Shown one piece after another: positions 12,301 to 57,226 of a stretch of 64,000 nucleotides of DNA. Within the stretch, counting starts at the first letter, position 1, and each line of letters begins with the position of its first letter. The notes beneath the pieces were generated by a model that did no database searches, was not told the origin of the DNA, and saw only the letters and a program-made list of their open reading frames with translations. The translations under genes were made by a program, and so were the position numbers. The stretch covers positions 23,892,015 through 23,956,014 of the forward strand of contig OZ316893.1 of the NCBI GenBank assembly GCA_973895155.1. Direction: 5' to 3'. The DNA comes from Marsupella aquatica. Its lineage: Eukaryota; Plantae; Marchantiophyta.

Positions 12301-13609
12301 CTAGTACAGTGCAATATGAAAATACACTTTGCACTGGTGGACTCTGGACTTGGGTGAAACCTCTATCTAACTGTGAGTGTGGTGGTGAGGAAGCCAGGAA
12401 GCGGTCCCGGACTAGTGAAGAGTAACTCTAGGGAAATTCCATTATGCAAAATCGTGGGTAGTCTGGCTAGGATCATGTCTCCAGCCTATACACTATGTCA
12501 GTTCTGGCGAAGAATACGTGCCAATTCAACTCAGCTGTAGAGCCTGTGAACTGAGGTTGGTCTAACTCCTACTATTCGTTCTGCAAACTGGAAAATAGAT
12601 AAATTCATGACAGTTAAGAACAACTAGTTTGCCTTTGACAACTCAGCTATCTTAAACCTTTAAGATTTGAATGAAATAACAATGGGTTGGGGGCCAAAAC
12701 CAAAGATCTCATCATGTGTATTACCTTCTTTTTGTAATGTTTATTATGTTTTCTTTCACTTTGTACATTGTAGTCTCTTCAGCGTAAATTTATTATTTAC
12801 ACAATGACATATTTTGTGCAACATCTTTTACAACAATATCTTTTTTGCAAATGATATCTTTCTTGCAAATGACATGTTTACCCAAACTACATCCTGTAAA
12901 CAATATAGTATGGTGAAAATTGCAAGTTACAATAGTACATACCGCATTGAATCTGCATCTGCCATACTGCAAGAACACAACCAAAGACCCACATTAATTA
13001 CACTTGGTTTGTGGTCACAAATACCTTGTGCTGGCTTCATTGTGTTTTGATAGTCAAAAATATTACAGTAGTACACTACGCATTAAATCTACATCTACAC
13101 TATTTCCAGAGCACAGCACCACTTGGTTTGTGGTGACAAATAGGGTGTCGTGGTTTGTGTTGATAGTATTATACAGTCTATGGTGGATAAGTGCAGTGTG
13201 AATAAGTGCATTCCATGGGTAACTGTAGGGTGGCCATGTCCTCAATAATACACCAAATTCCTTTGTAAATGCACAAAAAATGCATTTCTGTAAGTGCAAG
13301 TTGCCCGTCACTAAATGACAAAACATAAGGACATTTCCATCTACAAGAGTAGAGATGCATTAATCAATTACTGCAACACATATGTTAGAAGCATTTATTG
13401 ATAAGCAACAGACAACTACACATTGTAATTTCATGCACTTATCCAGTTTGAATCATGCAATACAAGGATTCTGGGTATGAGAAGTCAATGCATATGACTT
13501 GACGCAACAGGCACATATGAATAAGTGTAACATGCACATATGATGAAGTGCATAAAGTGGAGAAGTGCAGGCTCTTGGGTGTCTAAACATATTTTTCTTA
13601 TCTCAAAAT

Positions 13610-13885
13610 GTTTTTATCTCCTCCACATCTTTTGCTCTTGTTACAATCTTTTCTCTCCTCAAAACATTTTCTCCTTGACATCTTTTTCTCCTTGATATCT
13701 TTTCTCACCTTGACATATTTTCTCTCCCAACATCTTCTATCACCTTAGTTGTTTTTGCTCTCCTTGACATATTTCTCTCCTTGAAATCTTTTTCTCATCT
13801 CAGCATCTTTGTCTCTCCTCACATCTTTTCTCTCCTCAACATCTGGACATGTTTATCACCTTGACATATTCTGCTCACCTTGACA
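13610..13885. repeat. Degenerate minisatellite, ~18-19 bp unit (CATCTTTTCTCTCCTTGA-like)
   Basis: More than ten visible imperfect units; a reverse-complement array occurs at ~42795-43050. Confidence 0.75.
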
Positions 13886-13934
13886 ACTTGGTGGTCTAAT
13901 CAAGATAAAATAAGCAATACATACCAGCATTTAC

Positions 13935-15208: not shown

Positions 15209-15456
15209 TGTTGGAAATCACCCGTCAGATTGACCACTCATCATCTTGCTAGCTTAGATGTATAGGACATAATCAGCCTTCTCTAGATCTTGCTAGGTTA
15301 GACGTATAGGACATAATCAGTCGCCCTTATATGACAAAATTGTTAGGGCTTTAGCTCCTGGCTGTGAGTCACCCGGGCTGTGGGAATCATGTATAAGAAT
15401 TGGGTCCGTGCGGTTCATTGGATATCTCAATCATTCATATTATGTCATTTCCAACA
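15209..15456 (+). repeat. 5' LTR of the Copia element (248 bp)
   Basis: TGTTGGAAATCACCCGTCAGATTGAC...TTCCAACA; near-identical to 22815-23018 apart from a ~44 bp internal tandem duplication. Confidence 0.95.
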
Positions 15457-15468
15457 TGGTATCAGAGC
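15457..15468 (+). promoter_or_regulatory. Primer-binding site complementary to the 3' end of initiator tRNA-Met
   Basis: TGGTATCAGAGC directly after the 5' LTR's terminal CA; this is the standard plant LTR-retrotransposon PBS. Confidence 0.93.
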
Positions 15469-15693
15469 GATTCTGATTGGGATCTTGTGGTGCAATATGA
15501 TTGGGATCGTGTTGTAAGTTTTGGTAGAGTTCTTTGTTAGATCACTTAGAACACTAGCATGTGCTTGTTTCTTTAGTGTAGAACAAGTATTTACTACCAT
15601 TAACGGTCATCAGGTCATCATTTTTTTGGTTTTTTTGTTTTTGTTGTATCAAACTAACTACTGACTCCCTAGAAATACATAGGAAGTGCGGCA

Positions 15694-16010
15694 ATGGCGG
15701 CCGTCAAAGAAGTTCCAGAGGGTATGAAAGTAGCTGGTTCTTCTAATTATTTTCTTTGGTCTTACAAGTTGATGCAGCTTTTAAGAAGAGAAAGGTTCTG
15801 GGACCTTGTGGACCCTAGCTATTAGAGAGGACTCCACTACAACTGACCAGACTTAAACTCTACAAGATGCATCAACAATACTAGCAGTTGTTGAGGTGCT
15901 ACTGGACAAGCAGTTGAAAGCTCTTGTCATCTTGACATCCACTGTGAAGGATGAAGTTCTTCACCACATCATGGATCTGACGGATCTTGCTATGGCATGG
16001 GCTAGATTTA
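15694..16010 (+). pseudogene. Copia gag N-terminal fragment (frameshifted, truncated)
   Basis: MAAVKEVPEGMKVAGSSNYFLWSYKLMQLLRRERFWDLVDP, then ...KALVILTSTVKDEVLHHIMDLTDLAMAW; this is the typical Copia gag N-terminus. Confidence 0.8.
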
Positions 16011-16779
16011 CCTCAGGGGTTTCACTTCCACAAAAATGGCACATCACGTGCAATGAAAGATATGGTTGTTTTATTGGTTTGAAGAGAAGACTTAAGAATT
16101 TTTGCAAAATAACAATAGGGTCTTTTAAATTCAATTTTGAGACTTATAAGAATATTAGGGTCTTTCTAACTCTCTCTCTTGGATTCATGATGGCTCTCCT
16201 ATTCCTTTGCTATCCGAGCCAAAGAACACCCCTTTCCTAAATTCTCCAAAAAACCTTATTCCCTAAGGTCCCATCTATAAGTCTACCACTCATTCCTTTG
16301 TTATCCGGGCCAAAGGACGCCCCACTACTATGTTTAAGGCACAAAGAGTTTCACAACCTTGAATGATAAACATTGCGGAATGAGGGGAGAGTGCCCCTCA
16401 TCACTTTATTTATAGTGCACACCAAGAGGGCATGGATCAAGTCCAAACACCTGAATGAAGGCCAAGTGGCAAGCATCAAATACCTAAGAGTGTGTTAATA
16501 CTGTTCATAGTTGGTGGAACTACTGTGCATTGGTAGAATTACTGTCATTGGTAAAACTACTATGCGTAAGTGGAATACTGTGCGTTAGTAGAATTACTGT
16601 AGTTGGTAGAACTACTATGCGTAAGTGAAACTACATGGAATTACTATAGTCTGTACACTATAGCTAAAGAAGTTCATAAAGTCTAAATTTAACAATCTAA
16701 CTACTAAACTACTTATATAATCTATAACATATTAAAACAAACAATTTGTTTATATATTAAGAGAAAATCACGACACCAG
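16011..16779. mobile_element. AT-rich non-Copia segment replacing most of gag/protease/integrase; partly related to the interior of the 39985-41947 element
   Basis: 16160-16330 (CTCTTGGATTCATGATGGCTCT, TTCCTTTG(C/T)TATCCG(A/G)GCCAAAG x2) is reverse-complement similar to 40915-41075. It also contains a GGTAGAATTACTGT-type tandem array at ~16500-16660. Boundaries are approximate. Confidence 0.55.
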
Positions 16780-18438
16780 TGCTACAATGCTGATAAGAAG
16801 CGAGTGATCATTTCTCAGGATGTTACTTGCAATGAGCTGCAACTGAGAATCAGCAATCCCATTACCCAGCCCATTGTTCAACTAGAAGATTTTTTCCCTC
16901 AAGACCTGTTCACTTCAGTCCACACAGGAGTCCACACTAACTCCACTCGGCCAGCAACAACCGGTCAACAACCACAAACAACACTGGCACCTGATGACCA
17001 TGGACCAGACAGCTCAGAGCTGGCACCAGCATTGAATGATGCATGCTCTTCCTAACGACCACACTTTCAATTCTCCCCCAATAAGTCCCCAACGATCGCC
17101 TGATACAAGTGTTTCAGCTCCTATTTCCACAACAACACAAGAATGTAGATATCCAGACCGGGAGAGACGCACCAATGTTAGACTTCCTGGGTTTGATGTG
17201 TATATCAATTGGGCCAAAGTTGATGCCTGTAATTGCGAAGTTGAGTATCCTCTTGGAGAAATATAACGTTTACTCAGGCAACTGCTCATCGAGGATGGAC
17301 AGCAGCCATGGATGACAAGATGAGGTTCATTCTAAAGAATGACACTTGGGAACTGGTGCCTTTACCAGTAGGGAAGACAACAATCATGTGTAAATGGGTC
17401 TACAAAATAAAAGTTGGGACTGATAATGTGAAGCTGAAGGTAAGGATTGTAGCTCAAGGCTTTGAACAAAAATGGGGTAATGATTTTGAGGAGACTTTTG
17501 CCCCATTGGTGAAATGGTCTACTCTTAGAGTTCTCACCTTGCTTGCAGTAGCTCTTGGTTGGAAAATCAGTCAGATGAATATCAAAACTACATTCCTTAA
17601 TGATACTCTCAAGGAGATGGTGTTCATGTATCAACCATCCAGCTATGTTGTGAAAGGAAAAGAGTATTGGGTTTGTAGACTCAAGCGGTCATTATATGGT
17701 TTGAAGCAATCACCTAGGGCCTGGTATGAATGCATTGATTCATTTCTCAGGACTAATGGCTGGCAACAAAGTAGTCAAGACTACAATTTATATTTCATCA
17801 AGGAGGGCAAGACAGTGATCATTTTAGTACTCTTATATGTGGATGATGTGTTTTTGACTGGTAACAATGATGAGAATATCCAAGAATTGAAAGATCAGCC
17901 CAAACAGTGGTTTGAAATGACAGACATGGGACAGATCAACACGTACCTAGGAGTTGAGAGTACATTCGTTGCAAGGAGGGAATTGTAATTCATCAAACAA
18001 AGTACACCACAAGCATTCTGCAAGAGTTTGGAATGGAAAACTGCAGGCCTGCACATGTTCCGTTGCCATCGGGAACAAAATTATTTATGGAAACTAGCAC
18101 TCCAGTTACTGATGGCACACGGTATAGGCAAATTGTCGGTAATCTTATTTACCTCACCAATACACAACCTGACATCTCTTATGCTGTTGGGGTGGTGAGT
18201 AGATTTATGGCAAGTTAGGAGGAGCATCTCCAAGCGGTGATGCATATTCTATGGTACATAGGCCACACTGCGACGTATGGAATATTGTACAACAAGGAGA
18301 GTTCACTTCAATCGTTGGACACACTGATTCTGATTGGGGTTCTTGTCCGGAGACCCAACGCTCTACTGGAGGCTACATGTTCCAAGTGGCTCATGGAGCA
18401 ATTACTTGGTCAAGTAAACTGCAGCCCACAGTATTGAG
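16780..18438 (+). pseudogene. Copia pol remnant: integrase C-terminus, reverse transcriptase and RNase H N-part (stops and frameshifts)
   Basis: CYNADKKRVIISQDV; NDTWELVPLP..CKWVYKIK; LKRSLYGLKQSPRAW; LYVDD; TQPDISYAVGVVSRFM; TDSDWG..RSTGGY..ITWSSKLQPTV. Confidence 0.92.
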
Positions 18439-21400
18439 TGTGACACGGGCAACGTGTCACTTGACCGAACCCAGGTCGAAGATTAGGACTTATACGGTCA
18501 TAAGGACCGTAGCCATAGCGTAGAATAGCACGTATAGCCGCCAAGTTGCCATTATGATTAGATTAGGAGTAGGTTAAGATAACCGAATAATTACGAGTTC
18601 AGGAAAGGGATTATTACGCACGACCGAGGTACGGTGGCGGCAGCGGAGTAAAAATCAGTTAGAAGAATCACGCTTGGACCGAGACGCCAACTTCAGCTCG
18701 TTATCAATGACCAAACGGCCTGACCTTCTCACGCTCGGGCTCGTCCGGGCACCCCCATAAGAGAAGAGCCAATGGCACTGCGGGCCATTCGCTCACGTTT
18801 ACCTTTTTGGAATTCACGGACGCTGCCATCCGCTCGCCTTTTTGATTGAATCCAGTCGACCTTTACGAGGAAATTATCGAGGGAGAAGAGCGGAATGTGG
18901 CGAGATTTAGTCTGGACGAGCGAGGCCTCCGCGAAAAAGGACCAGCCAGGTGGGAACGTGGACGCAACGAACCGGAGTACGAGGTTAGTATGACCCTCAC
19001 AACCTTGGGATTTTGGACCTTGTTTGGTGAGGTAGGTGCTAAGTTCTCCGAGACTTACTGGTACTCTTGCCCCGAGAAAGCCGCTTACGAACGAAGGTAC
19101 GCGAAGCTGGTAACCAAGGTAGCACTGGTTAATTGCGAAAGGATAGCCATCACCAGGGATTCTAGCTATAACGAGCTGCGAGACTACATCACCGAACTAT
19201 ATCTCAGCGAGGAAGGGCTTAGATTGGTAGCAGAGGCGATTCTTGAGGTTCCAGCTAAGTTCTTTAATCTGAAGGGCAACCAGCGGCTTACTCAAGCGGA
19301 GTTCGACAAGATTCCGGGGTACCTAGACCAGCAGATCGCAGCCGAAAAGCGCCAAGAAGACATCAGCAGACAACAGGAAGCGGCGCGTAATCTCACGTTC
19401 CTCGGGGAAAGCTCCAATGCCTTCAACTGGGATATGGCTACCCCAGCGCCTCAACCGATGACCACCGGAGTACCGCCGAACCAGTCCCAAGTCCGTCCAG
19501 TAATCAACGCGGAGTGTTCTTCGGGTTCCGAGCGAGCTAGTCCGCAACTCGAACAGCGTCCTTGTAAGCGGTCAAGGACTACGACGGTCCCCGAATCAAC
19601 ACGGACCGACGCCGCGCCTGCACCTGCCCCGGCAAACCCCCCGACCAACCAGACCCGACGGCCCCCGGATAACCCGAAGTCCAACTTATTACAGGTAATC
19701 CGCGTCCCCGAGGTAGTCTGGATCGCGATCAAGAAACTCAAACATGCGGACTATCTCAAGGAGCATCAGTTGGAGCGGTTCGCCCACTTACTATGGAGGC
19801 CGTGCGCCGCCGGGCCGAAGGAGATTTTTGAGTTCATCTCCAATTTTGACACTGATGCGTCGACCACCAAGGTTTCGGGGCAGACCTTATCACTCACGGA
19901 GCATCGGCTAACACAAATTTTTGGCCTACCAACCGGGCCGGTGCCGGTGGAAATCCGAATTCGGGATAAGGAGTATACGCCGTGGCACTTCAAACCCGAG
20001 GGTAAGATGGACAACGGATACAAGCAGGGGGCGTGCACCAACTTAACCTGTATGGAGCGGCTTAACTTCATACAGACTACCCTACACATGATTGAGCCAC
20101 GATCCGAGATTTCCCTCTGCACGATAGTGCAGGTGGAACAGTACAAACGACGAAACTGGGCCCAATTCTTCTACCGAAGATTCTCGGGGGAGCTGAAGCG
20201 GGCTCAGGGTGGTATGGCTATTGGAGGGAAGACTTACTTGGGAAGTCATATCGCCATTATCCTCGCCTGGTACAAGGCACGGCGGGAGGCCAGAGGAAAG
20301 AATACGGCCACCTCAGCCCCGGGTAATGTCACCCCCGCCCCAGAGGAGGCAACCCCGACTACGCGGACTAATGTCCCTCGGACAAACCCCGAGCCGGAAG
20401 CCCCGACTAATACTCCGCAACCGCCCCCTATGGAAATTCCACCGCCTCCTTTCGTTGAGCCTCCGCTACCTGCAGTACAACCACCCCCAATCCCTCCACC
20501 ACCTGAAGAAACCTTCCCCTCCCCAACGCTGACTACGGAGGAGCTCATTGCCCCTGCCGAGGAACCACCGGTACCCGAGAGGATGGAGGACTACCAAGTA
20601 GCCCCGGGGACCATGGCCTACGACCTGGTCCAGAAGTTTAGCCAGACTATGTCTGGGGAGTTGGCGACATACATCGGACAACAAGTCTCGGCGTACTTTC
20701 AGCCAACCTTCTTCATGTTAGAGCACCAACCACGGATCGTCAGCCGCTTGGAAGAAGAACTCATGGCGAAGGGGAATGAGATCGGGCGTCTCCAGATGCT
20801 GGTAGAGCACCTCGAGGAAGAGGCAACGACCCGCCGCGAGGATTTAGTCCGCACTGTCAAACAGAGGGACGGACTAACCCAGGAGTTAAGCGGAGCGCAG
20901 GCCGAACTCAAGAAGCTGGACGACACCGTGCTTCAATTACGCTCAGAATCTTCGGCTCGGGTTACCAGCCTGATCGACCTCAACAAACAATTCCTGCAGG
21001 CAGCACAGCAGGTGGCTAGTCTCTCCGCCGAACGAGATAAATTGCTAGCGCAGGACCAGGTCCATCGCGACGCCATCGACCAGCTCAACTTGGAGGTGGC
21101 GCGGCTCCAGACTGAAGCCGATGAAGCTGCAAACGAGGCGGAGGAAGCATTACGGGACAACAAGGCTTTGCAGGACCGCGTCACCCTGCTCGTCCTCCAG
21201 CGGGGAAAACCTGGGCCCACCTCTGATCAAGGCGGCTCGAGGTCTCGCCCCGACAAGGGGACCAGCCCTGGTCCAACCACTGCACACACGTAAGGGGTAG
21301 TTAGCGAAGGGTAGAAGCAGGCGCCGCGCGAGGCGGTTAAGTCAGCGGCATCTTTTAGTTAGGCGTAACGACAGAATGACTGTCATTAGGCGCCGATTAG

Positions 21401-22275
21401 CGGCAGTAGGAAGAATTAGGGCAGGTCAGTTAGGATCAGCCAACGTAGGATTGAGTCCATCAACGGACTAGAGTTTGTCAGTAGGCTTGGCCGCTGCCAT
21501 TCCGGTTGGCACACTCGTAGTCGACGGTCAACCGGTCAGTGCAGCGCGACCAGTAGTCAGCAGTTAGTTAGTCAGTAGGTAGTACCCCGGAAGGTAGTAT
21601 CCTCCGATTCTCTTCCGCTATGGTAGTATTTAGGCTTCCCCTTCCGCGATGGGAAGCGGGAGAAGGCTTAGTTATCTCAGCAGAAGAAAGGCAAGGCACG
21701 GGGAGTCCCGGCCTGAGTAGGGTCAGAGCGTACCAAGGAGTGAGAGCCAGAGTCGAGCTTGCTGGGCAAGTGCGAGGCAGGGCCTCGTAGAGACTGGGCA
21801 GCGACTACCGTTGGGCCTCTGACCCCCTTTGAAGTCGAGTCAACCATGTAAACTGATGCTTCGCTGAGTAAATGTAGTCTTTTCTCCCTAATGTTTCTGA
21901 GAGTAACTGGTGTTGTGTGTATGCTTTGTCCGGGCAAAGGCGCCATTTTAAGGGACGTACCGGGTGCGGACTAATGGTAGGGATTGCCACTCATTGCATG
22001 TCACAAGTTCCTGTCACGTTGATGGCTTGAAAAGCCCCAAGTCGGGAGTTAGTCCGCGTCACTAACTGAGGGAAAATTCCAGCGGTGGAAAATAAATATA
22101 CCTATGTCAAGTACGAATTATGCGAGTGTTATACCAGTAAGTATAGCGGTTTAGCCCGACTTAGGGCTAATGAAGGTCACTACACACCTCCTTGCCCGAA
22201 CCCTCACCCCTACTGGTGGTCGAGGTCGCACCACGACACTAACCCGGATTTAAGGCCCAGGGTAGGGGTGCGACA
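18439..22275 (+). mobile_element. 3,837 bp TG...CA element with 5 bp TSD nested in the Copia RNase H; best read as a giant solo LTR (Ty3/gypsy-type termini) carrying a long ORF
   Basis: Starts TGTGACACGGG and ends GGGGTGCGACA. The perfect TSD TTGAG lies at 18434-18438 and 22276-22280. Copia RNase H coding sequence resumes immediately after. No second copy of either terminus was seen inside. Orientation is inferred. Confidence 0.88.
18846..21293 (+). CDS. 815-aa retroelement accessory protein: putative plant-transposon-protein/PMD-like central domain, Pro-rich linkers, long C-terminal coiled coil
   Basis: Stop-free 2.4 kb frame. The central segment EFISNF..TKVSGQTLSLTEHRLTQIFGLP...NWAQFF...LGSHIAIIL resembles accessory ORFs of plant gypsy elements (recalled pattern, not searched). 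The C-terminus is heptad-rich. The true start is uncertain: TTG at 18846, first ATG ~18990, upstream TGA at 18843-18845. Confidence 0.8.
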   Translation: MNPVDLYEEIIEGEERNVARFSLDERGLREKGPARWERGRNEPEYEVSMTLTTLGFWTLFGEVGAKFSETYWYSCPEKAAYERRYAKLVTKVALVNCERIAITRDSSYNELRDYITELYLSEEGLRLVAEAILEVPAKFFNLKGNQRLTQAEFDKIPGYLDQQIAAEKRQEDISRQQEAARNLTFLGESSNAFNWDMATPAPQPMTTGVPPNQSQVRPVINAECSSGSERASPQLEQRPCKRSRTTTVPESTRTDAAPAPAPANPPTNQTRRPPDNPKSNLLQVIRVPEVVWIAIKKLKHADYLKEHQLERFAHLLWRPCAAGPKEIFEFISNFDTDASTTKVSGQTLSLTEHRLTQIFGLPTGPVPVEIRIRDKEYTPWHFKPEGKMDNGYKQGACTNLTCMERLNFIQTTLHMIEPRSEISLCTIVQVEQYKRRNWAQFFYRRFSGELKRAQGGMAIGGKTYLGSHIAIILAWYKARREARGKNTATSAPGNVTPAPEEATPTTRTNVPRTNPEPEAPTNTPQPPPMEIPPPPFVEPPLPAVQPPPIPPPPEETFPSPTLTTEELIAPAEEPPVPERMEDYQVAPGTMAYDLVQKFSQTMSGELATYIGQQVSAYFQPTFFMLEHQPRIVSRLEEELMAKGNEIGRLQMLVEHLEEEATTRREDLVRTVKQRDGLTQELSGAQAELKKLDDTVLQLRSESSARVTSLIDLNKQFLQAAQQVASLSAERDKLLAQDQVHRDAIDQLNLEVARLQTEADEAANEAEEALRDNKALQDRVTLLVLQRGKPGPTSDQGGSRSRPDKGTSPGPTTAHT

Positions 22276-22280
22276 TTGAG

Positions 22281-22697
22281 CTCATCTACAAGAACCTGAG
22301 TACAAAACATTGTCTGATGGAGCTAGAGAAGCAGTATGGATAAAGAGACTCATGAAAGAAATTGGAATATAGCAAGACCACGTAATAGTTAGTTACACAG
22401 ATTCACAAATTATGTCTGATATGTCAGAGTCGGTCATTGTCATGAACTGTGATAATCAAACTGGCACACAATCCAGTATTTAATGCTCGCACAAAGCATA
22501 TCAAAATACAACATCATTTTATTAGGGAACGGGTTCTTGAAGGAGAGATCTACTTGCAACATGTTCCCACAGGAGAACAAACAACTGATATTTGGACAAA
22601 ACCTCTACCGAAACCTGCTGAATTCCACAGATCAGCTTTTGGTCTAGTAGACACTAGAATTCTACATCCTGTCTTAGAGCATGATAGCGTAAAGTAG
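22281..22697 (+). pseudogene. Copia RNase H C-terminal remnant
   Basis: EYKTLSDGAREAVW...IKLAHNPVFNARTKHIKIQHHFIRE...VPTGEQTTDIWTKPL; continues the sequence interrupted at 18438. Confidence 0.9.
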
Positions 22698-22814
22698 CAG
22701 AATCTAACTCCTTCCATTTGAGCTCTGAGATCTGAACACTGAGTAATGTTTACAGTGTACAGAATTGTGAACTGTCTAGAAATTAGAGTATGGTCACTGC
22801 CAGTTGAAGGAGGG

Positions 22815-23018
22815 TGTTGGAAATCACCCGTCAGATTGACTTCTCCGGATCTTGCTAGGTTAGACATATAGGACATAATCAGCCACCCTTATATGAGGGA
22901 ATTTTTAGGGCTTTAGCTCCTGGCTGTGAGTCACCCGGGCTGTAGGAATCATGTATAAGAACCGGATCCGTGCAGTTCATTTGATATCTCAATCATTCAC
23001 ATTGTGTCAATTCCAACA
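22815..23018 (+). repeat. 3' LTR of the Copia element (204 bp)
   Basis: Preceded by the polypurine tract 22805-22814; TGTTGGAAATCACCCG...TTCCAACA followed by the TSD ATAGC. Confidence 0.95.
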
Positions 23019-26845: not shown

Positions 26846-29767
26846 TTATGTTGGAGGAAATAACTTATGGAGATTCCAGGGAAGTCGGTAGAACTCCTCG
26901 TTCCTTGGATCGACACTGAAGTGGTGAAATCTTGACCACCAATGCATACCACGATCTCTGTGAGAAATGGCCATTGTCACAGTATTGTCCAAGAAAGCCG
27001 CCACGAGAAGGGCCACGACCACTTGTGATTCGAATATGACGTTGAAAATGTCATTGAACTGTGCAGCCAACACCCACACATTTATAAAACGTCAGGGCTA
27101 AGGTCAAAACTAAATCATGATCACCGAATGCAAATTTTGGCCATCACCGGTCATCTCGTCAACAGACTTACGTACCCAATGTGCCGACGTGTGTACAGGT
27201 CCCTGACCAGCACTGACAGTGTACGAGTTGAAGTACTCAGGGACAGAAAACGCGAGGTAGAGGGATGTGCCCACAATGAAGAGGTTCCTCGTTGAATTGA
27301 TGTTCGTGAATTGCAGAATGTTTATTCCTGTGGCGGCAACAATTCCCAGAACTATACACAAGACAGCCGCCAACATGGGCAGTGGGATTGAGGCAAATAT
27401 GGCCCCAAATTTACCTGTCAACATAGTGCAATACGTTAGCGAACACTGAAGTGAATTGAACCGTAATGTAGAAAACCCGCAGAGCTCTCCATGCACAAGG
27501 ATCGAGAATACAGGTACGAGTCTAGCAACGTACCAAAGAGGCCAAAAAAGATCATCCACAGTGCACCAACTTGAACTACTCGCCGACTCCCCACCCGTGT
27601 GAGGCCAATGAGCCCAACGTTCTCTCTGCCCATGACATGAGGCATCGCACGCGTCAGCACCATTTCAACGGGTAACAATTCCTCAAGAAATCACGTAACC
27701 TTGGAACCTAAGAAAGGACATACTTACGGCGAAATGGTTGCTCCAGCAGCAGTACCGAACAACCCACCAAAAAGAATTCCAACTCCCTGTGGAGCAGATC
27801 AGAAAATGAGTGAATCACACTTCAGCCGTCACCGTTCCTGAGAAAACACGGAGCAAGAGTTGAATTCCACAAGTACGCTAGACCCATTGGTATTTACCTG
27901 CCAGCCGATACCTCGAGAAATCACATGAGGGGGAGGCGGTGTTGCCCCTGAAAGTCGAGAAGCAGCGTAGAACCCTGCGGTAGACTGGCCGGGGAGAGAA
28001 CAAATCACAAAAGTATCCCAACCAAATTGTTCGATAAAACTGGAATGTTGGAGCTGGAATGCTATATTTAATTTAGTTGCTCGAATTTGAAGGATTGCTC
28101 TCACCTCTGCAAGCGCCGCGATGACCCCAGCCATCATCCCAAACGCATGGCCAGCGTCGAAGGTGGGCGCACCCCACTGCAATGGGTAGGGGACCCTAAC
28201 CCTGCAAGACTCACATTTCTCCACGTTGAGATGAATGGACAGATTACCCAAGAGGGACATTATAGGTAGGAGACAATTTAGTTCACTTCTAGGACGTACC
28301 AAGGGGCGCTGCTGATAAGACCTGCGCGGTTGGTTTGGCAATGCTGTTTGCCTAAGGCAGACGCGTGCTTGTAAGTTCCGCTCACTGTCAGAACGTGCGC
28401 GTATATCCACACAACCCCCAGTCCCAACACTACCGGAAACAGTTCGAAGATATGGAAGTGATGACGGATTTTAATCCGGAGATGCTTGAAGTATTGAGAG
28501 AACACGAAAATGACGATGATGGCCGGAATACCGATCTCAACACATTTTGCAACCTGTGATCAAGACATGCACCAGATCGTCAATCCTAATCTAACATATC
28601 GGTTGAATAGGAACTGCTTTGACTGTGGCATGAAGGATTGGGAATGCTAATCAATGCAGGAGACATGCATACCTGCGAAAATCCGAAGGCGTAAACGCCC
28701 AGCCCGTACAAGGCAACAGTTGGTGCAATTGAAATGGGGCTCAGAAATCTGAACCCAAAGCAGTGAACATGTCTCAGAATGCATGCGGACCTCATACTAT
28801 TCCAAATGGTTTTTGAGAAGTTGCTGAAGAAAGGGAAAACATCACCAGCAACGAATTCAGATACGAACCTGCATGCTATCCCCCAGAGTCCGCTAAAACC
28901 CAGGACTATCTGGAGGGCCGATGACCCAATCAAAGCGCCTTGGATGGCACGTATGGTGTGCAAGAACCTCTGCAAAAAGGTTGCAAGCCGAGGTTCGGAT
29001 GAGCAGCGGACCGAAAAAGTTGGAACGAAAATGAGCTTCACGACAAGTAAGGATATCCGCAAGTATGCATTCTGCACTGAAGATTCACCTCGTGTGGATC
29101 GGTTATAGTAGTAAGACTAGACGAGTTGATAATCGTCAGCGTTGGAATGAAGTAAGCGAATGAGACTCCAGACACCACCGGAAGTCGAGTGCCCACAAAC
29201 GTCTGTATCAACGTGTTGATACCAGACACAAAAAACATCGTCTGAATGACTCGAGCCGTGTCGCCCTGATTCAGATACGAAAATTCTGTTGGTTAACCGC
29301 AGGTGAAACGGACATAGCTGACGTTCAATGAAAGAGCATCTCAGATAACGTCCCAGAGAACGTCCACAGCAGGACAATCTACTCACAGTGTCGCCGCCCA
29401 TCTGAGGAACTAGAAGCAATGCCGAGAAGACAATCGGGAAGAGCAGGACTATGTAGTGCTGGAATCCCAGAAGAATGATTTCGGCTGCAACCAAAACATG
29501 ACAACGTCTTATTTCACAAGTGTAATCGAGAGGTCGTCGCAGGAGCTCCGTGAACTTCCAAACTTCTAATTGGGTACTACGAATCCAAATTGCATGGCGA
29601 TTCAGCGAGGATTCGGACCACGTTGCAGAATCAAAGCAAACTCAGGCGCAGAACTTACGCCAAACGGGATGGTCGTTGATGCAGTATCTCAATCCGGGGA
29701 GCTGCTCCTGGATGGGATGGTGCAGCGGCTCCGTGTCCTGCAGCTGAATTTTGTTGGCCTTCCCCAT
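26846..29767 (-). CDS. NAT: Nucleobase-ascorbate transporter (NAT/NCS2), paralog A; 12 coding exons: 29767-29659, 29484-29387, 29265-29089, 28969-28869, 28748-28673, 28553-28300, 28201-28105, 27984-27898, 27786-27728, 27625-27534, 27414-27176, 27058-26846
   Basis: QEQLPGLRYCIND; TM1 GFQHY; GTRLPVV; PYPLQWGAPTF; NAT signature ENVGLIGLTRVGSRRV; C-terminal DRGMHWW..DPRNEEFYRLP..FPPT. All introns are GT-AG with consistent phases. Confidence 0.95.
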
Positions 29768-33079: not shown

Positions 33080-36000
33080 TTAAGCACTCAAGCTGGCATG
33101 GATGGAAGGAAAAGGGGAGTGTACTGAACCAATCTTGGCATTTGATAAGGGGAGTTGCAAAATGAGGAAAACGTACATTGAGAAGCAAGGGTCACCTAAG
33201 CAAAGAGAGGAAGAACTGCTGCTGCTGCGGGATAAATTATGGGTGCTGAAGACGACCATAATGGAGGAATACTCTGAAAACAAACTTCAAGAGTATGTTG
33301 ACACAGAGGACCTATTACATGCTGCGGAGTTAGAGGAGGCACACAGAGGAAGAAGACTGGCAAGAATTAAATGGTTGGGGGAGGGAGATGAACCCTCTCA
33401 TTTCTATTTTGCAACTGTGAAGGCTAAGAGAGAACAAGAAGTGATGAAGAGTTTGTTACTGGAAGGAGGGTAGACGGTGATTACAGATCCGGTGCACATA
33501 ATGAAGGAGGTGGAACAAACATGTCAGGAATTGTATGCTCGGACTAGGGACCCATGGAGCAGGAGCGTCTGGTCTCACTTAACGAAAGAAGCAGGTTGCT
33601 TGAGCATACTAGGGCAGCACTGACCACAGCACAGATAACTATGCTGGAGAAGTTGCCAACAAACACGGAAAATTAAAGAGGTACTTTGGATGCTCCCAAA
33701 GGACAAGGCTCTTGGACCGGATGGGTTGTCTGCTGAGTATATCAGGCATGCTGGGAATTTTTGCAGCAGGACCTGTTCGCCATGTTTTTACAAGAATTTT
33801 GGTTGACAGGCCAGCTGGCGAGTGGGATAAAGGAAGGGATCATCAAATTCATTCCCAAGAAGGCAGATAAATGGATGCTACAGGACTGGCGGCCACAAAC
33901 CATGCTAAATATAGTATACAAGTTGATTGCCAAAATTCTGGCTTGCAGGCTGATATGTATCCCGCCCCGGCCGATTAGCCCTCAACAGGCAGGATTTATC
34001 CCTGGTCGTAATATATTGGAGAATATATCACTTGCATGGTTGACTTTTGATTGGGTGAAAAATAGGAAGTACGGGAGGAAGTATAAGGAACTCTTTCTTA
34101 AACATGACTTTGAGAAGGCATTTGACCGTGTAGACCAGGGCTACATTTGGGAAACTATGCACTTGCATGCTCGGGATCGGTGGCAATTTCATTAAATTGG
34201 TGTAGGCACTGATGCAACACGCTACATCAAGGACACACTTGAATGGAATGCTTTCAACAGACATTGGGCTCCAACGGGGGGTTAGACAAGGATGCCCCTT
34301 GTCTCCTCTCCTCTTAGTTTGTGATCTCAACACAGCCACTGATGGATTTTATGGACGCAGAACTGGTTGTGGGCAGGCTTGAAAGAATACTAAGAATCTG
34401 TTATCGACTGGTCGTGGATGACTTGGGGATGTTTATCCCAACAAAGGAGAGAAACTTTCAACACGTTATAGAGGTGGTGAAATGCTATGAGTTGGCAACA
34501 GGGGCTCGCCTTAACTTATGGAAATCCATTGTGATACCACTAGCGATGATGATTACGCCATGGTGGCTTAGGGACACTGGTTGTGTGATCAGTGGTAAGG
34601 GGAACTCCAGAAATATCTTGGAGCTCCCCTGGGGTGATCTGAAAATGGAACAACTGCATAGCTACATATTGGATAAAATTGGACAAAGGCTCTCATCTTG
34701 GGCCAACAAGCTGTTGACATTCACAGGCAGAACTCTGCTTATAAGGCACATTCTATAGGCAATACCAATCTGTCACTCAATGTTTCTAAAGGCTTCTAAT
34801 GGGCTGGCAAGGAAAATGACTGCAATATATAGAGATTTTCTGTGGGGGTATAATAGAGAAGGAGGAAGGAGGGTGCCTTTGGTATATATCCTGGGCTCGC
34901 ATTCCTCGTCATAAGGCGAACGGGGGACTTGGAATCAAGAATTTCAGAAACCATTCGAATGCGCTACTGGCCAAATGGTTTATTGGGGCACTGGATTCCT
35001 CCAGATTGGAATGGGCTTGTTTGTTCTCTGCAAATCTGAAACTGATTGGATGGGCCAACTACAAGGTAGTAAGAAGAAACAAATACACGTTTAGGGACAA
35101 GATGTTGCTTTGCTGTCTGAGAACACTGTATGACTAGCATATACGGGTGGGCTCTAGAAGGCACGGGAACTGCTACGGGAAAATTTGATCTTATATATGC
35201 TTCACGGACCGAGTACCAGGAAGATGGGCAATAGGGGACACAATCAGGTGTTTGAAGGGCTTTTAGGCATGGAGCAACAAGGAAAGCCTACCCATTCACC
35301 CACAAAGTCTCGTGACAACAACATTTGGTGTATACAAGATCTTTGGGTGGAGGAGAGACAGGGATGGAGAACGGTGAGCAGGAGATGGGAGAACCTGCAT
35401 GGATTCACATTGGAACACCAAATTTTGGGAAAAAAATTCATGGACGCAGTGGCAAACATCAGGCATTGTGTATGGGGGTATGAACCTGGTCCTAGATGTT
35501 GGTGCTGGCCGGGCAGACTGTCCGGATCCACTGAAGAGTTTGGGAATTCAGAATAGAAGAGCTTATAGGATGATTTGGACTGAGTGCAACGACACCCCCA
35601 ATCTGAACCAAACATGGGGGATATTCAGGACAACTGGGGGCTCGAGTATAGGATGGACTGGTATATGGAGATCTGGTTTGACTATGAACGCTAAGACCTT
35701 TCTATGGAGGATAATAGCATTTGGTTTGTTCTTTGGAGTGAGGGCGATGAAGATAGGTAAAGGAAGTGGTGAGTGCAAGTTGTGCCCCGGGATTCTAGAA
35801 TCCATTCCCCCATCTCTTCATTGAATGTGCACATGCACAAATTAAAATGTTGGGCTTTTATGTGCTAGATGTTTTGATGGTACATTTGCAGATCACTCAG
35901 GTGGTCTGATTGGGTTGATTGATTATGCTATTGGAAGGAATCCCTGTAAGGTAATGAAGTTGTTTATGCTCTACCAGATACTTTGGATGCTGTGGAATGG

Positions 36001-36441
36001 CAGGAATGAGCACATGTTCAAGATAGAGGGAACCAGGAAGTTGGATCTGTGCTTAATACTATCTGAAGTGGCGGGATCATGTCTCAGCGGTGATACTCAC
36101 CCTACCGACTTGCAATAAAAGAACGAGGTTACTTAGGGCCAAAGAGATGATTAATAGGGAAAGGATGCTATGGATCAACCGGAGGGACATCTGGATCACA
36201 TTGGGCTAGAAGTAGATTCTGGCCTGATGATGGTGGCTTGTTGATGATGAGGGTTCTGTCTGTCAATTAGGCATATTGATAGGAAGATGGGCTGCCCCTG
36301 GAAGTACTCGTGCTAGGGACACTTGCACTGTTTGCTCTTTGGCATACTTGCATCCCCTTTTGTGATGCTATTGATTCTGCTTGTTCCCCTTGCCACGGGG
36401 CTTTTGTGGTCCAAATCTATAAAATTAAAATATTTTTCAGG
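33080..36441 (+). mobile_element. 5'-truncated, decayed L1-type LINE (ORF2: RT and C-terminal zinc-binding region)
   Basis: KWLGEGDEPSHFYF, DWRP.TMLNIVYKLIAKILA, QAGFIPGRNI, DFEKAFDRV, GVRQGCPLSP, GRTLLIRHIL, CKLC and LWNGRN, with many stops and frameshifts. A-rich 3' end. 15 bp TSD AAA(A/C)CAATATTTCCA at 33065-33079 and 36442-36456. Confidence 0.92.
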
Positions 36442-36661
36442 AAACCAATATTTCCAGTTTACTCCAGGAGTTTCACATTTGGTATACTATAATGTGAAGG
36501 GATGCGTACACTTAAGCAATGCAAACCATTTAGATGGAAATTAGTGTGGTCTAGGCAAGAAGACTCCGCATATATATATATTGAGTATTGAGCATTTTCC
36601 TTATTGTGTCCTCAAGCACTATAGTGGGGCTAAACTCAACTAGTGATTAAATCTCCATATT

Positions 36662-37315
36662 TTTTATTTTTAAGTAGAGGAGGGGCAGGCCCTATCAATT
36701 AGAAAAGGAGGCAAAAACCACCCAGTCAAATTGAGAGAGCACAAAATCAGGAGGGAGGGTGCCCCTAGGCCCTCCCCCCCCCCCACCACCACATTGGTTG
36801 ACACACAGGACCATCAGAGTCAGACTGACCCTTCAGACTGATGTCCAAATAGTCAACTAGACTAACCATGTTGTAAACGCAACCCATGTACACCACATAT
36901 GATTCATGAAACTAATCTGCCAGCGGTTAACAGTAATGTCCTTATCAGACAGGTCACTAACACGAACAGGCTCATAGAAGTTGCAAGGTCCATCCCGCCA
37001 CTGCTCCAATCCACCAAGATCACTGAGGGGCGGCGGCAAGGGCCAAAAATTCTCAGTGATCATCATTGTTTTCATTAGAGTTGACCTCAGTCCGTCCCCC
37101 CCCCCCCAGTTACCTTGCTGGAGAATGTCTTGCGGCGCTTGAAGGGTCTTCTGAAGTTGATTGCTCTTCTTACTAGTGTTGCTGGTGCTCATCATGATTT
37201 TGAGATGGTGTGCAGTGTTCTTAAGTGTCACCCAAACTGGGATCTTCCCCATGGGATGGTTGAGGCCACTGCATTCCGCTCATTCCAGAAGCCTGTCTTT
37301 AACCTAGGTCCGCTC
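36662..37315 (-). mobile_element. Short 5'-truncated LINE 3' fragment
   Basis: The minus strand encodes FWNERNA, a LINE ORF2 C-terminal WxERN motif. A T-rich tail on + (poly-A on -) lies at ~36661-36672. The 11 bp TSD ATCTCCATATT lies at 36651-36661 and 37316-37326. Confidence 0.75.
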
Positions 37316-40309
37316 ATCTCCATATTCTTTAGCTTAGGTCCACTCAGTTCAAAAGATGAGCCACCCAGTAATTGTCAATTTTGATAATCTGCAAAACAAT
37401 GGAATGACTTCACAATTGAAAAATATTGTAGGGGAGTTGGTTCCTCAATTTAGCAATTTTTTTAGGCCAGCCTTGTAGATTTAGACCCTTCTAGAGATTC
37501 ACTACATTTTCTAAAGGCAATTCAATGATTTGCAGTCTGTACTAACCTTGACATACCTACAAATTGAAACTTAAATACAATAATTAAACTTCAAATTCAG
37601 CCCATTATTAAATAACATAACCCATACTCTTCCAACCACTTAATTAAGATCAGTGGATATCAATGTCATGAACCCCAAGTTGTGAGGATGTGCATGTGAA
37701 TATGATATGAAATCAATTAAATCAAAGGGGTGGAAAACATTTGGACCCATATACTGGTCTTTGGGTGTCCCATTGGTCAATTTCCTATCTAGTCACAGGC
37801 CCCATTATCTAGATTCTAATGATTAATCTAAAATCTAGGAAGATCTAACGCCAAAAACTAATTTCAGAAAATCAACTAAGGAATGTAGTAGCTGACATTC
37901 CCCACTCTGGAAAAATGGAAAAACCTTAAAGATTGCACTGGCAATGGTCATCACATTTGCCATGAAAATAAACACTTGTTGGATTTCAATGAAAGCTAGA
38001 GAAACAAATTACATAATAATTTGAAGTCTATTCTAGAGATCTTCACACCATATTTGTATAGTGCAAACTTTGTCTTAAAAATCTAATCAAATCTTACTAT
38101 ATTTTCACAACAACAAGTTAAGCTTAAGAGCCTATGTCTAGTCAGAGTGAAATCTCTAGAAAATAACTATGGAGTGATACATGGAGTTATGGATGAGAAT
38201 AGAAAATTGGGTTGAGGAAGGGGGTGTGAGTGGAAATGAGTGAATGGGATCAAGTGAGTCTCTGGAAATGGCATGTAAAAATTGCATGTCCTGACCTCTA
38301 TTTACTTTCAAATATATTATTGGTTGAGTGCGGGGGACTTAGTGAGTTTGGGAGCAGCAGCAAGCAGGAATAGAGCTTAATTTGCAACAGGCGTTTATGC
38401 TGCTTTCATTTGATGATGCGCACATCCTGATTTGTTGGGACCTTTAGTAGCTAAGAAGGACAAGCGGGTGTTTAATCTTGAGGCAATGCATGCGTTGTGG
38501 ATAGTGTAGATGCATGTACATGTTTAGGTTTTGAGGTCAAAGACCAACTTTTTGTTGTAGCAAAATCTTTGCATCCCATTTTCTTAGCTGCAATAATGAG
38601 CTCCGTTGATTCAAAGCCCAAATCCAGGCTTGAAATAGAACTTTCGCTTGACAGAGACAAGTGTATTTTTGCATTGAAAGTCACTTACTGTTATGCAAAA
38701 TACCTCACTATTTACATCAGACATGGGTGTGCTTTCTAGATCAAGCTTCGCATTGATCAGATGCAAACTTTTCTCTAAGATCAGCCACAATTGAACCAAC
38801 TAAAACTAAATAGATCCAATCGAGTAATTGAATTAGACAGCCCATTAGGCAGTGATTGAAGACAATAAGAAGATAGAAAAAATGAAGGGCAATATGACAA
38901 GGATCCATGATTGAAGTTGATAAAGGAAGTTGCTTCAATGATTGTATGAGAACCTTGCCATTTTAAACTAGGGGGAGTAGGAAAGCATTGATCTAGAGAT
39001 ATAGAGAATGAAGCGGTTTGGATCATTCATTCCCTAAAGCTGTTTACATGATCATAATAAACACAAGTGGGCAAAAACAATTGATCAAACACTTAATACA
39101 ATTCCAGAAACCCGTCATTTTGATCTGAATTAAATATTGCTAAAGCGAGATAAGCGAACAGGGTACATTTACTGCATATGACAAAAGAATGACCCTAAAT
39201 TCCACTCACTAGTTAAAGGGGGATTCCAAGCACACATTTACATTTGGACCATCAAGATGAATGTGATGCAAGCGGGGAAGCAAATGTTTGCTAAAGGAGG
39301 TGATCATGTGATTTTAGCATGTACAAACATTTATGAACAAAATCCTTGAAATTTCAGAGCCCATACCAAAACTTGGAGCACTGCACAAGCACGGGCATTA
39401 CTAAATGGAGCACATTCCCAATGTATAAATAAATAAATATGACCAGGGCAAAATTGACGTATGACAGTGAGGGGCACTTAGGGTGGAATGCCTGGAGAAG
39501 TATTGTCTGGGGCACAACTCTTAGCTCATATGCCCATTGAACAAACCAAGCTTAGAAGTGTGTCCAAGTTGCTTCAGCACTGGCTCATTTAAGCCTATCA
39601 GTTTGTCAATTGGGCTTAAGGCAAAAGCTTAAATAGAGATGAGAGGCCAAAACATTGAGCATCAAAGTTGGTCAATGGTTGGTGAGGGGGTGCCAGATGT
39701 CCAAAAGCATAGTTATATGAGAGAGAGAGTTGTCCTCATATGGACCTAGGGAGCCATGGGTTCCTCTGTTACAAGTGGTTCAAGTCCAAACCAGAAATAA
39801 TGATACCTTTGCAATCTAAGCTTGTTTGAGAAAATCTAAGGCTCATTGGAAAGTTGTGAATTAGACCTAGCCTTCCATGAACTCCAAATGTTCATTGGGG
39901 TAGAATGGTGCCCTGGCCTGCTATTTGGATGGGCAACTTGTAAAAATGGCTATTGCGCATGCATTGCAAGAACCAAGGATGTCACTGGGAGGTTAACTAA
40001 GTGTATAATTTGAGGTACCATGTGTGATCATGGTCTAATATAAATAGACTTATTTATAAAGACAATAATCTAAGAATATTTTTTATTTTCAATATTAATA
40101 ACTTTTTTTACTTCAAAAATATATATATTAGTGAATATTCTACAAACATGAGTTTATGATACTTTCTTTTGCCTCCTATATTTTTGAAAATTTTAGTTAA
40201 TTTCTATCAAAAATACATATCTTGGATTGCACATTGTCATGATAATTTAATTATTCATGACCACTAAGTATGTTAGTAAGTATATAGGTTATGTTGATAT
40301 TCTTTGATG

Positions 40310-40690
40310 CGCATGCAAGGTAAGCAACTATGCAAGCCACAAGATGCATGCACAAATTATTTAGATACATGTGCAAATTATTTTATTTGCATACAATAGT
40401 CATTTTATGTGCATACATGGTGAGCAAATATGCAAGGTGCATGCACAGTTTATTTTAGATGCATACAAATTATTTTATTTGCATGAATAAACTATTTTAT
40501 GCACATGCAAGATGAGCAAATATGCAAGCCATAAGGTGCATGTACTAGTTGTTTTATGCACATGCAAGCCACAAGGTGCATGCATTAGTTGTTTTATGTG
40601 CATGCAAGGTGAGAAAATATGCAAGTCACAAGGTGCACGCATACACAAATTATTTAGGGTGCATGTATTAGTTATTTTACTTGCATGCAT
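40310..40690. repeat. Degenerate tandem array (TATGCAAGCCACAAGGTGCATGCA...TTATTT) inside the TIR element
   Basis: About five imperfect units rich in TGCA/CATG. Confidence 0.7.
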
Positions 40691-41410
40691 CATTTATTTT
40701 GATTGCAATAATACTTGCACACATTCATATGTTAGATGTGTGCCACTTGGCTTTCATTCAAGCATTTGGGCATAATTTATGCCCTATTGGATTCAGTATA
40801 AATAAAATGGTGAAAGATACTCTTTTTCTCATTATTATATTCTGATAATTTTTGCATTCAAGCGATCTTTTTTTTATCTCTCATTTTTTTTCTATTCTTT
40901 GCCTTATGTATACTGTAGTGGAGCATCCTTTGGGCCGGATAGCAAAAGAATGATTGATAATCTTATATTTAGAACCTTAGGAAACAAGATCTTTTTAGAA
41001 ACTTAGAGGTGGGGCATCTTTTGGCCTGGATAGCAAAAGAACTTAGAGCTATCATGAATCCAAGAGCAAGAGATATCTCTAATCTTCCCCTTTGTAATCT
41101 ATTTTTGATTAGAGTCCATCTTTTAGACAAATCATCCATGAGACAATATTTAATCTATCATTTTAGAGCTCAATTTTCAGCTACTATTATGGGTCTAACG
41201 CCCCAATAGTATACCCAATAGTGTCTTACCGAGAAGAGTGAGAGTGCATTATCTTTGTCCTCTATTAAAGTCATGGATCTAAATGGAGTCTAGAGGACAT
41301 TATTTTCTATTTAATTTTCTCTTGGAGATATTAGGATCATGGGTCATAGAAAAATTAATTTCCGAGAGGTGTTGGTCTACAAGTACGATGAAATAGGGTT
41401 TAATAGTATA

Positions 41411-52517: not shown

Positions 52518-52686
52518 GTAACCTTGTTATATAAAAAAGTTTATGACCAGTCCTTAATGGCCAAAAGCCAAAACCCATCGTCAGTAATTTTGAAACTTTG
52601 AGGTAACCTTGTTATATAAAAAAGTTATGACCAGTCCTTAATGGCCAAAAGCCAAAAGCCATCGTCAGTAATTTTGAAACTTTGAG
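52518..52686. repeat. Near-perfect tandem duplication, 85/84 bp
   Basis: GTAACCTTGTTATATAAAAAAGTT...GAAACTTTGAG at 52518-52602 and 52603-52686, inside a region with GGTGAGGGGGAGGTGGG-type repeats (52194-52790). Confidence 0.9.
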
Positions 52687-56985: not shown

Positions 56986-57226
56986 CAACTCAATAATTGT
57001 GTTACATTGTCTACTATTGAGGTTGAGTGGTTGAGTACATGGTTGTTTGAAAAATAACCAAGGAGTTGATCTGGCTATGAAAATTGGTGAGTGATGTGGG
57101 TCTTTAGTTTCTATCAATTGGAAGATGGCAACTCAATATTGTGTTACATTGTCTACTATTGAGGTTGAGTGGTTGAGTACATGGAAACAACCAAGGAGCT
57201 GATCTGAATATAGAGATTGGTGAGTG
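56986..57226. repeat. Tandem duplication, ~143 bp period (second copy partial)
   Basis: CAACTCAATA(A)TTGTGTTACATTGTCTACTATTGAGGTTGAGTGGTTGAGTACATGG at 56986 and 57129. Confidence 0.85.

Follow-up and report, generated by a model that had tools for sequence, protein, structure and literature searches.

A 3,837 bp unit that interrupts a decayed Ty1/copia element of Marsupella aquatica is, with somewhat better than even confidence, a solo LTR left by a Ty3/gypsy-type retrotransposon of high copy number that carries an accessory plant-mobile-domain (PMD)-coiled-coil gene inside its 3.8-kb LTR. The parent retrotransposon probably belonged to a liverwort. The gene in the LTR is intact, and its product is predicted to be a DNA-binding protein with a PMD/VANC fold and a coiled coil. 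The assignment to gypsy is made from this type of cargo, not from a reverse transcriptase (RT). The features of the unit and of the surrounding window, i.e. the whole stretch of 64,000 nucleotides analyzed, are compiled in Table 1.

Table 1. Features of the unit, its open reading frame and the host element (positions in the window)
Feature	Position	Strand	Basis
Ty1/copia element, decayed, interrupted by the unit	15209..23018	+	LTRs, PBS, RT, own TSD
Left target-site duplication TTGAG	18434..18438	.	exact 5-bp TSD; single copy at empty site
High-copy TG..CA unit, probably a solo LTR	18439..22275	.	TSD, depth, right-end junctions
Upstream non-coding part, CpG-rich	18439..18989	+	o/e 1.25 over 18439-18845
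Left-terminal hairpin (8-bp perfect stem including the end sequence, loop of 5 nt)	18440..18460	.	stem search
Stop-to-stop open frame, 815 codons	18846..21293	+	ORF list, shuffles
Likely coding sequence, 767 aa, first in-frame ATG 18990	18990..21293	+	relatives' starts
N-terminal helical domain, aa 1-140, common to relatives, no named family	18990..19409	+	protein comparison
Basic core domain (aa 229-440) with a predicted VANC21/PMD-like fold	19674..20309	+	predicted structure
Proline-rich disordered linker, 33% Pro	20310..20609	+	composition
Long helix / coiled coil, aa 541-737	20610..21200	+	prediction
Downstream non-coding part, 982 bp	21294..22275	+	unit end vs ORF end
Same-strand AGTTAG / YAGTWRG motif cluster, partly within a 15-bp tandem pair	21299..21579	+	motif count
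Right-end stem, 22225-22232 pairing perfectly with 22267-22274	22225..22274	.	stem search
Right target-site duplication TTGAG	22276..22280	.	exact 5-bp TSD

The unit has the termini TGTGACAC and GTGCGACA (inverted match 6/8) and is flanked by a target-site duplication (TSD); the coordinates, length, termini and TSD given in an earlier note on this DNA were rechecked and are all correct. The end signature by itself is weak evidence for an insertion. In the 64-kb window, 740 pairs of TSD and TG..CA ends occur at a spacing of 3-5 kb, and 3 of them also pass TGT..ACA plus the 6/8 match. The insertion is real, since contig depth jumps at both unit borders in public sequencing runs and contigs linking both Copia flanks across a single TTGAG, the empty site, were found in all four runs. 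Thus, an older Copia element has received an insertion of the integrase type (TG..CA ends, TSD of 5 bp), and both the integrase footprint and the split of the Copia RNase H region proposed in the earlier note hold up. The interrupted element has LTRs (15209-15456 and 22815-23018) that are about 90% identical, a PBS at 15457, RT at 17245-17988 and its own TSD, ATAGC.

In a BLASTN search of the unit against the 64-kb window (word 7, E<=10), neither terminus was repeated internally and no second copy was found, while a repeat search of the unit gave just short, weak repeats. Short terminal direct repeats, which the earlier note had named as the sign of an ordinary non-autonomous element, were not detected by either method. 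Neither a PBS-like motif nor a purine run followed by TG was present on either strand of the unit, and a scan for gag, protease, RT and integrase motifs gave none but the four-letter string TDAS, twice in the ORF frame; with these searches, the reported absence of repeated termini, PBS and such motifs is upheld. TDAS was rejected as a sign of RNase H, the predicted structure having no RNase H fold. TRIM, LARD and TR-GAG elements are characterized by a direct repeat at either terminus together with a PBS and a PPT, all of which the unit lacks. Ginger-like and other TIR DNA transposons encode a DDE transposase and are bounded by terminal inverted repeats; in the unit, the terminal match is 6/8 and neither a DDE fold nor a corresponding Pfam match was found. 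Rfam gave one chance-level match in the window, located outside the unit, and a profile search of the 64-kb window found no second member of the ORF protein family.

Summed contig depth over the unit was 121-1,232x the flank median, depth not being equal to copy number. The median depth of the ORF was equal to or higher than that of both non-coding ends in each of the four runs, unlike that of an internal gene between separate LTRs, so the ORF belongs to the repeated unit, without an LTR pair around it. Other copies, in sets of 10, 9, 7 and 2 contigs, end at the same right-hand position, 22275, and continue into unrelated flanks; right-flank agreement was 0.45, 0.45 and 0.48 in the first three contig sets, compared to 0.43-0.46 expected for random flanks. 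Sharp borders, varied right flanks and the depth of the ORF confirm the earlier view of an ORF inside a bounded unit without an LTR pair, and a one-off internal deletion, considered in the same note as a possible origin, was not found, given that ORF depth does not fall below end depth in any of the four runs. Indels among copies avoid the ORF: among 12 of the 26 indels listed, one lay in the coding part, although this part makes up 60% of the unit (p about 0.0003, or 0.002 when the indels are merged into 10 sites).

Copies with internal deletions are numerous (78 joints), which would suit a rearranged or non-autonomous Tat/Athila-like derivative, in which outer LTR halves surround an ordinary internal extra ORF and which was then amplified. 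The cargo would suit it as well, having the layout of the internal PMD-coiled-coil extra ORFs described in PMC4408406. This origin is nevertheless unlikely, as judged from the missing internal terminus repeat, PBS and purine tract followed by TG, from ends that are not deeper than the ORF, and from the loose ends, none of which leads toward a gag-pol junction among 24 of 1,244 listed. The properties observed are those of a solo LTR: TG..CA ends with a short inverted match, a TSD of 4-6 bp confirmed by the empty site, no internal PBS, PPT, gag, pol or terminal direct repeats, and the same ends in many copies elsewhere (right-end contigs; depth step at both borders).

Scans of viral contigs, metagenome contigs and prokaryote genomes revealed no complete parent element in which gag-pol lies between a PBS and a PPT. 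No RNA data set containing this DNA was listed, which is uninformative as to expression. Loose ends at the right terminus, the only one covered, showed no PBS- or PPT-like continuation, where identical junctions could collapse into few contigs and joins with short overlaps could be missed. The missing parent would be explained by an LTR-less single-gene cassette with its own protective gene, moved whole by an LTR-type integrase in trans, perhaps via end hairpins. Right-end junctions that all look mutually unrelated are consistent with such a cassette, as are the relatives of the ORF protein, which are located on contigs of at most 7.5 kb (Logan, ENA, JGI), show no pol domain where scanned with Pfam and gave no family-pol fusion in a weak search of longer proteins. 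At each end of the unit, the terminal sequence recurs in perfect inverted form over 8 bp, a rare feature (69 of 63,940 window positions for inverted copies of this type). However, the inner arm of the right-end stem differs among copies, short contigs are normal for repeats, and most copies of an element with long LTRs are expected to be solo LTRs. Moreover, without PBS and PPT, we know of no way in which the linear DNA substrate of the integrase would be made. A cassette is therefore an improbable account of the unit, and a new mobile class, comprising LTR-less one-gene cassettes with hairpin ends in hundreds of copies, a borrowed integrase, a VANC-like protein and putative binding sites, is distinctly unlikely. 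The LTR is favored over the cassette because gypsy extra ORFs are known to have both this layout, a PMD plus a coiled coil, and the PMD/VANC fold predicted here.

The stop-free frame of 815 codons compares to a mean of 154 and a maximum of 262 in 200 shuffles. The gene is likely to comprise 767 codons (60% of the unit), since position 18990 holds the first ATG in frame and is where relatives begin, and since other copies have a 2-base insertion at 18932, upstream of this ATG. Hence, of the 815-codon gene previously reported to cover about 64% of the unit, the stop-free frame stands and the gene length does not; the roughly 1 kb of non-coding DNA described 3' of the ORF is borne out. The protein consists of a helical N-terminal domain, the core, a proline linker and a coiled coil. 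Pfam gave no PMD, DUF1985, Athila or Transposase_28/32 match to it, while Atlas gave leads to PMD and DUF1985 clusters (0.85-0.86; DUF1985 0.85, 13% of the cluster). The N-terminal domain had no Atlas match, and a second look by structure search returned just ferritin-like helical bundles (Z 5-6). In a viral structure library, no match to the ORF protein was found at E<=0.001.

The core (model with pLDDT 93 and pTM 0.90) is predicted to have the PMD/VANC fold, as in gypsy extra ORFs. VANC21 of VANDAL21 (PDB 9lnj/9lnk) was the only match with Z>=5 among 48,161 chains (Z 8.1, rmsd 4.5, 199/212 residues; next match Z 2.3). Foldseek gave a probability of 0.99 and a TM of 0.55 for the same pair at E 0.029 (>0.001); sequence identity is 9-10%, and a Z of 8 is near a commonly met level. 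The sole solved fold match thus being a Mutator-family protein, the unit could also be a DNA transposon, either Ginger-like or VANDAL/Mutator-like but devoid of TIRs, which became non-autonomous and retained nothing but a vanC-type gene. Mutator TSDs are roughly 9 bp long, whereas the empty site defines a TSD of exactly 5 bp here, and the ends are TG..CA with an inverted match of just 6/8 and no TIR. Gypsy elements carry the same fold (PMC5418596), and a DNA transposon is very improbable. VANC and PMD have a common fold (PMC13547354; bioRxiv 2024.09.27.615353). A shared fold by itself is no proof of function. The combination of a PMD/VANC-type fold with a C-terminal coiled coil, as in gypsy extra ORFs, is predicted for the ORF protein; from VANC factors it departs in lacking a Pfam match to DUF1985, for which there is an Atlas lead only, and in not being encoded by a VANDAL/Mutator element.

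An index-free search yielded 36 protein relatives (E<=0.001, identity 24-40%), whereas word-index protein searches returned none. One relative could be aligned from the N-terminal domain through the coiled coil (E 1e-47). Calypogeia fissa is the named source of 9 of the 30 representatives looked up, with no other species named; by its sequences, the protein family is unnamed and appears linked to liverworts. A Transposase_32 match was seen in one of the 36 relatives, below the cut-off (E 2e-5). Two near-identical Calypogeia copies with neighboring accessions share six private changes and the same break. They were rejected as support for an LTR pair, because the accession numbering (N,C..C,N), on which the orientation is based, suggests inverted rather than direct copies.

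The upstream non-coding part of the unit is likely the promoter region of the ORF. CpG o/e is 0.7-1.2 in the unit compared to 0.2-0.5 in Copia, which may reflect merely youth or composition. TATA and poly(A) motifs gave an ambiguous signal for the LTR orientation. The non-coding parts of the unit contain AGTTAG 8 times and the ORF does not contain it (family-wise p 0.014 among 6-mers); with 5-mers (p 0.61) and 7-mers (p 0.44) in the same test, the signal is modest, and the degenerate pattern YAGTWRG was picked after the AGTTAG result. The cluster represents candidate binding sites. In PMC5735166, the targets of VANC are described as motifs beginning with (Y)AGT throughout, which are densely arrayed on the same strand of non-coding DNA.

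For a solo LTR, a complete LTR-gag-pol-LTR element would have inserted here, and LTR-LTR recombination would then have left one LTR between the TSD copies. The gene may have entered the LTR by a shift of the PPT past a 3' extra ORF, enlarging U3. An ORF antisense to the element RNA is slightly preferred, because its own poly(A) site then would not cut the genomic RNA. The gene may serve to bind and protect the element's own DNA. By analogy with VANC and VANDAL, it is conceivable, at less than even confidence, that the protein forms oligomers by means of its coiled coil and counters silencing by binding to the AGTTAG-like cluster of the LTR that encodes it; each solo LTR would therefore retain both factor and target. 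Taken as a whole, the proposal of a retrotransposon with an anti-silencing factor encoded in its own LTR is a doubtful, tentative one.

A gene is cargo that such end-repeats normally lack. MMTV sag is a gene within a retroviral LTR, and the TRIM Cassandra has a 5S RNA within its LTR; as in these, the gene of the unit would be present in each LTR copy. Products and hosts are unrelated, however, and the 767-aa protein of the unit is a predicted chromatin factor. Plant genomes purge their retrotransposons mainly by forming solo LTRs, and an LTR holding a gene would leave a working gene at each purge. Plant LTRs reach about 5 kb in non-chromovirus Ty3/gypsy elements (PMC6317226). The unit resembles the solo LTRs of such elements in its TG..CA ends, 5-bp TSD, missing internal repeat and gag/pol, size and high copy number, but 60% of it is an intact, indel-depleted gene, and it is known without its parent element.

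VANC21 of VANDAL21 is similar in the predicted core fold and the coiled coil and possibly in the same-strand cluster of short motifs in adjoining non-coding DNA (PMC5735166). It differs in sequence (9-10% identity), in the DUF1985 match and in its Mutator carrier as opposed to an LTR-type one, and the activity of the unit's protein is a predicted one. VANC proteins are regarded as specific to dicots (PMC13547354). Among gypsy elements, those of the Tat group typically have extra ORFs of the PMD-plus-coiled-coil type (PMC4408406); in this paper and in PMC7264820, PMC11963269 and PMC11728184, such ORFs are assigned to Tat lineages III-V (Ogre), with Transposase_28 in Retand and ORF1/Transposase_32 in Athila. 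The protein of the unit resembles theirs in its predicted globular PMD-like core, in its C-terminal coiled coil and in being encoded by an LTR-type element, and one relative weakly matches Transposase_32. Unlike these ORFs, which lie in the internal region, that of the unit is located inside an integrase-bounded TG..CA unit and not between PBS and PPT; in addition, its protein has a further N-terminal domain, misses the Pfam models and belongs to a liverwort-linked family. The role of plant gypsy extra ORFs is treated as an open question in PMC7264820 and PMC11963269, and with a VANC21-like fold predicted beside a cluster of candidate motifs, a role in anti-silencing becomes directly testable. 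A PMD/VANC-fold protein of an LTR-type element in a liverwort bears on the origin of the domain from gypsy elements or host genes (PMC5418596). In PMC4408406, no extra ORFs are reported for moss and lycophyte Tat-like elements and they are first placed in gymnosperms; a liverwort ORF with the predicted PMD/VANC fold would predate this proposed origin.

The insertion of 3,837 bp with a TTGAG target site duplication (TSD) claimed in the earlier note (hereafter the unit) is real, since a single TTGAG joining both Copia flanks, i.e. the empty site, was found in contigs of all four public sequencing runs (4/4) and the summed contig depth steps up at both unit borders. TTGAG is present on both flanks of the unit, which has a GC content of 55% compared to approximately 41% in the flanks. 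On its own, the end signature arises readily by chance: the window contains 740 TSD plus TG..CA pairs at 3-5 kb, three of them under a stricter rule (TGT..ACA plus 6/8). The insertion bears the footprint typical of an LTR integrase, and a DNA transposon as the source of the unit is regarded as very improbable. In the interrupted Ty1/copia element (Copia), RVT_2 was identified upstream of the unit (Pfam, E 4e-59); the split segment is, judging by its motifs, presumably the RNase H region, and the split fragment gave no match in Pfam.

Positions of the unit, the interrupted Copia and other features in the window
Feature	Position	Remarks
Host Ty1/copia, decayed but complete	15209-23018	own TSD ATAGC; both LTRs and PBS
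Copia LTRs	15209-15456 and 22815-23018	~90% identical; internal duplication of ~45 bp in the 5' LTR, not in the 3' LTR
Copia PBS	15457	
Unit	18439-22275	5' terminus TGTGACAC, 3' terminus GTGCGACA
Open frame of the unit	18846-21293	
Second Copia remnant	40719-41075	inverted fragments, ~75% like Copia 16167-16495
Broken LINE-like RT and zf-RVT frames	33737-35824	RVT_1 E 9e-13
Nucleobase-ascorbate transporter-like gene, intron-containing	27110-29641 (-)	Xan_ur_permease E 6e-12
Likely paralogue of the transporter-like gene	~47500-49000	20 kb off, 76% matches
Two more TGT..ACA plus 5-bp repeat pairs	33727-38723 and 55692-60390	probably chance
Degenerate tandem or dispersed repeat arrays	59935-60744, 52190-52855, 40300-40700, 13587-13888	

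Within the unit, neither a terminal direct repeat, short ones included, nor a PBS, a PPT-plus-TG or a gag/pol motif was found by window self-comparison and motif scans, as the earlier note had stated for internal end repeats, PBS and gag/pol motifs. That the unit is a rearranged non-autonomous derivative is considered unlikely.

That the unit is a high-copy repeat is evident. Part of it is present in six of the seven listed runs and at least half of its words in three, under four coded organism labels, of which A and B are not independent (contigs common in length and place). The run with the best coverage may stem from the source of the window itself. Its median depth was 273x, 1,232x, 121x and 179x the flank median in four runs, a depth ratio not equal to copy number. 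In 4/4 runs the ORF depth was at least that of both non-coding ends; the ORF therefore travels with the ends as part of a bounded unit and is not flanked by LTRs that exist separately in greater numbers. Similarity to other copies ends at 22275 on the right side, where these continue into unrelated DNA (10, 9, 7 and 2 contigs), with a flank agreement of 0.45, 0.45, 0.48 and 0.58, respectively; random flanks are expected to give 0.43, 0.44 and 0.46 for n=10, 9 and 7. The right-end contigs contain no common PBS- or PPT-like continuation beyond 22275, but full-length elements may exist all the same, because identical junctions are collapsed into few contigs. Scans of viral contigs, metagenome contigs and prokaryote genomes revealed no full-length parent element. 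A stand-alone cassette moved in trans has a low probability.

The frame is stop-free over 815 codons (shuffled-sequence maximum 262), so that the gene described earlier is indeed open, while 815 is a stop-to-stop count; the protein is likely 767 aa long, because no in-frame ATG precedes the one at 18990 and relatives start at the same place. Among indels between copies (12 of the 26 listed rows), one is in the coding part (p ~0.0003, copies related), a sign of selection tempered by the kinship of the copies. An index-free protein search yielded 36 relatives at E<=0.001 (best E 1e-27); one of them (P0040) aligns over N-domain (aa 1-140), core (aa 229-440) and coiled coil (27% identity, E 1e-47). 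The liverwort Calypogeia fissa, the sole species named, is the source of 9 of the 30 representatives looked up, which makes a liverwort the probable host. Pfam gave nothing beyond coiled-coil noise for the 767-aa protein and a Transposase_32 match below cut-off in 1 of the 36 relatives. Four C. fissa relatives (P0009, P0049, P0050 and P0051; CAM6101869/870 and CAM6101879/880) represent two near-identical broken gene copies, ten accessions apart, with six private changes and one break in common. Such sharing could be expected of an LTR pair, but the accession order suggests inverted orientation, so that these copies give no support to the LTR reading. Two divergent family members (P0047 and P0031; CAM6086213 and CAM6086215) are also neighbours.

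In the full-length model, two domains (N-domain and core) are confident; two linkers are disordered, and the C-terminus forms a long helix. For the core modelled alone (pLDDT 93, pTM 0.90), DNA-bound VANC21, the anti-silencing protein of the VANDAL21 transposon, was the only match with Z>=5 among 48,161 solved chains (Z 8.1, rmsd 4.5, 199/212 residues, 9% identity; next Z 2.3) and ranked first in Foldseek (prob 0.99, TM 0.55, E 0.029). The predicted shared fold is no proof of function, and an anti-silencing role is a tentative possibility. The core is basic (32 K/R vs 20 D/E); nuclear signals could be provided by short clusters of basic residues.

AGTTAG occurs eight times outside the ORF and not inside, seven copies being on one strand and five within 280 bp 3' of the stop (family-wise p 0.014 for 6-mers; 5- and 7-mers not significant). 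Since VANC targets are described in the sections of PMC5735166 compared as arrays of closely spaced motifs on the same strand of non-coding DNA, this cluster is a lead to a candidate VANC-type target. CpG o/e is not depleted in the unit (0.7-1.2) in contrast to Copia (0.2-0.5), which is compatible with escape from methylation or simply youth. Both unit ends have a perfect 8-bp inverted self-copy close by (background 69 of 63,940 window positions), and the inner arm of the right-end stem is variable among copies. Some retroviruses are known to have a stem at their U5 end.

Single TG..CA units between TSDs ordinarily arise by LTR-LTR recombination. Given this, the integrase footprint, the length of plant LTRs and the Tat-like cargo, the unit is probably a solo LTR from a gypsy family in which the LTR has taken up the family's extra ORF. 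Recombination would have left a single LTR between the TSD copies, and the ORF likely came to lie in the LTR when the plus-strand priming site shifted. An ORF antisense to the element's RNA is slightly preferred over sense, based on a poly(A) argument and on analogy with Retand-type ORFs in the parts of PMC7264820 and PMC11963269 considered.

No case of an ORF inside a plant LTR was found in the open-licence literature searched; one of the searches listed nothing but a review on MMTV and a rice gene without relation to the question. Tat-like, Athila, Phygy and Tekay-labelled elements are documented in liverworts by PMC13468544 and PMC12885004, the portions of which compared here do not mention extra ORFs inside LTRs. 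Plant extra ORFs are placed in the internal region in the published descriptions compared here. The relevant part of PMC11728184 describes 5' extra ORFs for Tekay and 3' ones for Athila. Plant LTRs reach approximately 5 kb (excerpt of PMC6317226), and the protein of the unit has the same layout of plant mobile domain (PMD) plus coiled coil as the Tat extra ORFs in the section of PMC4408406 compared.
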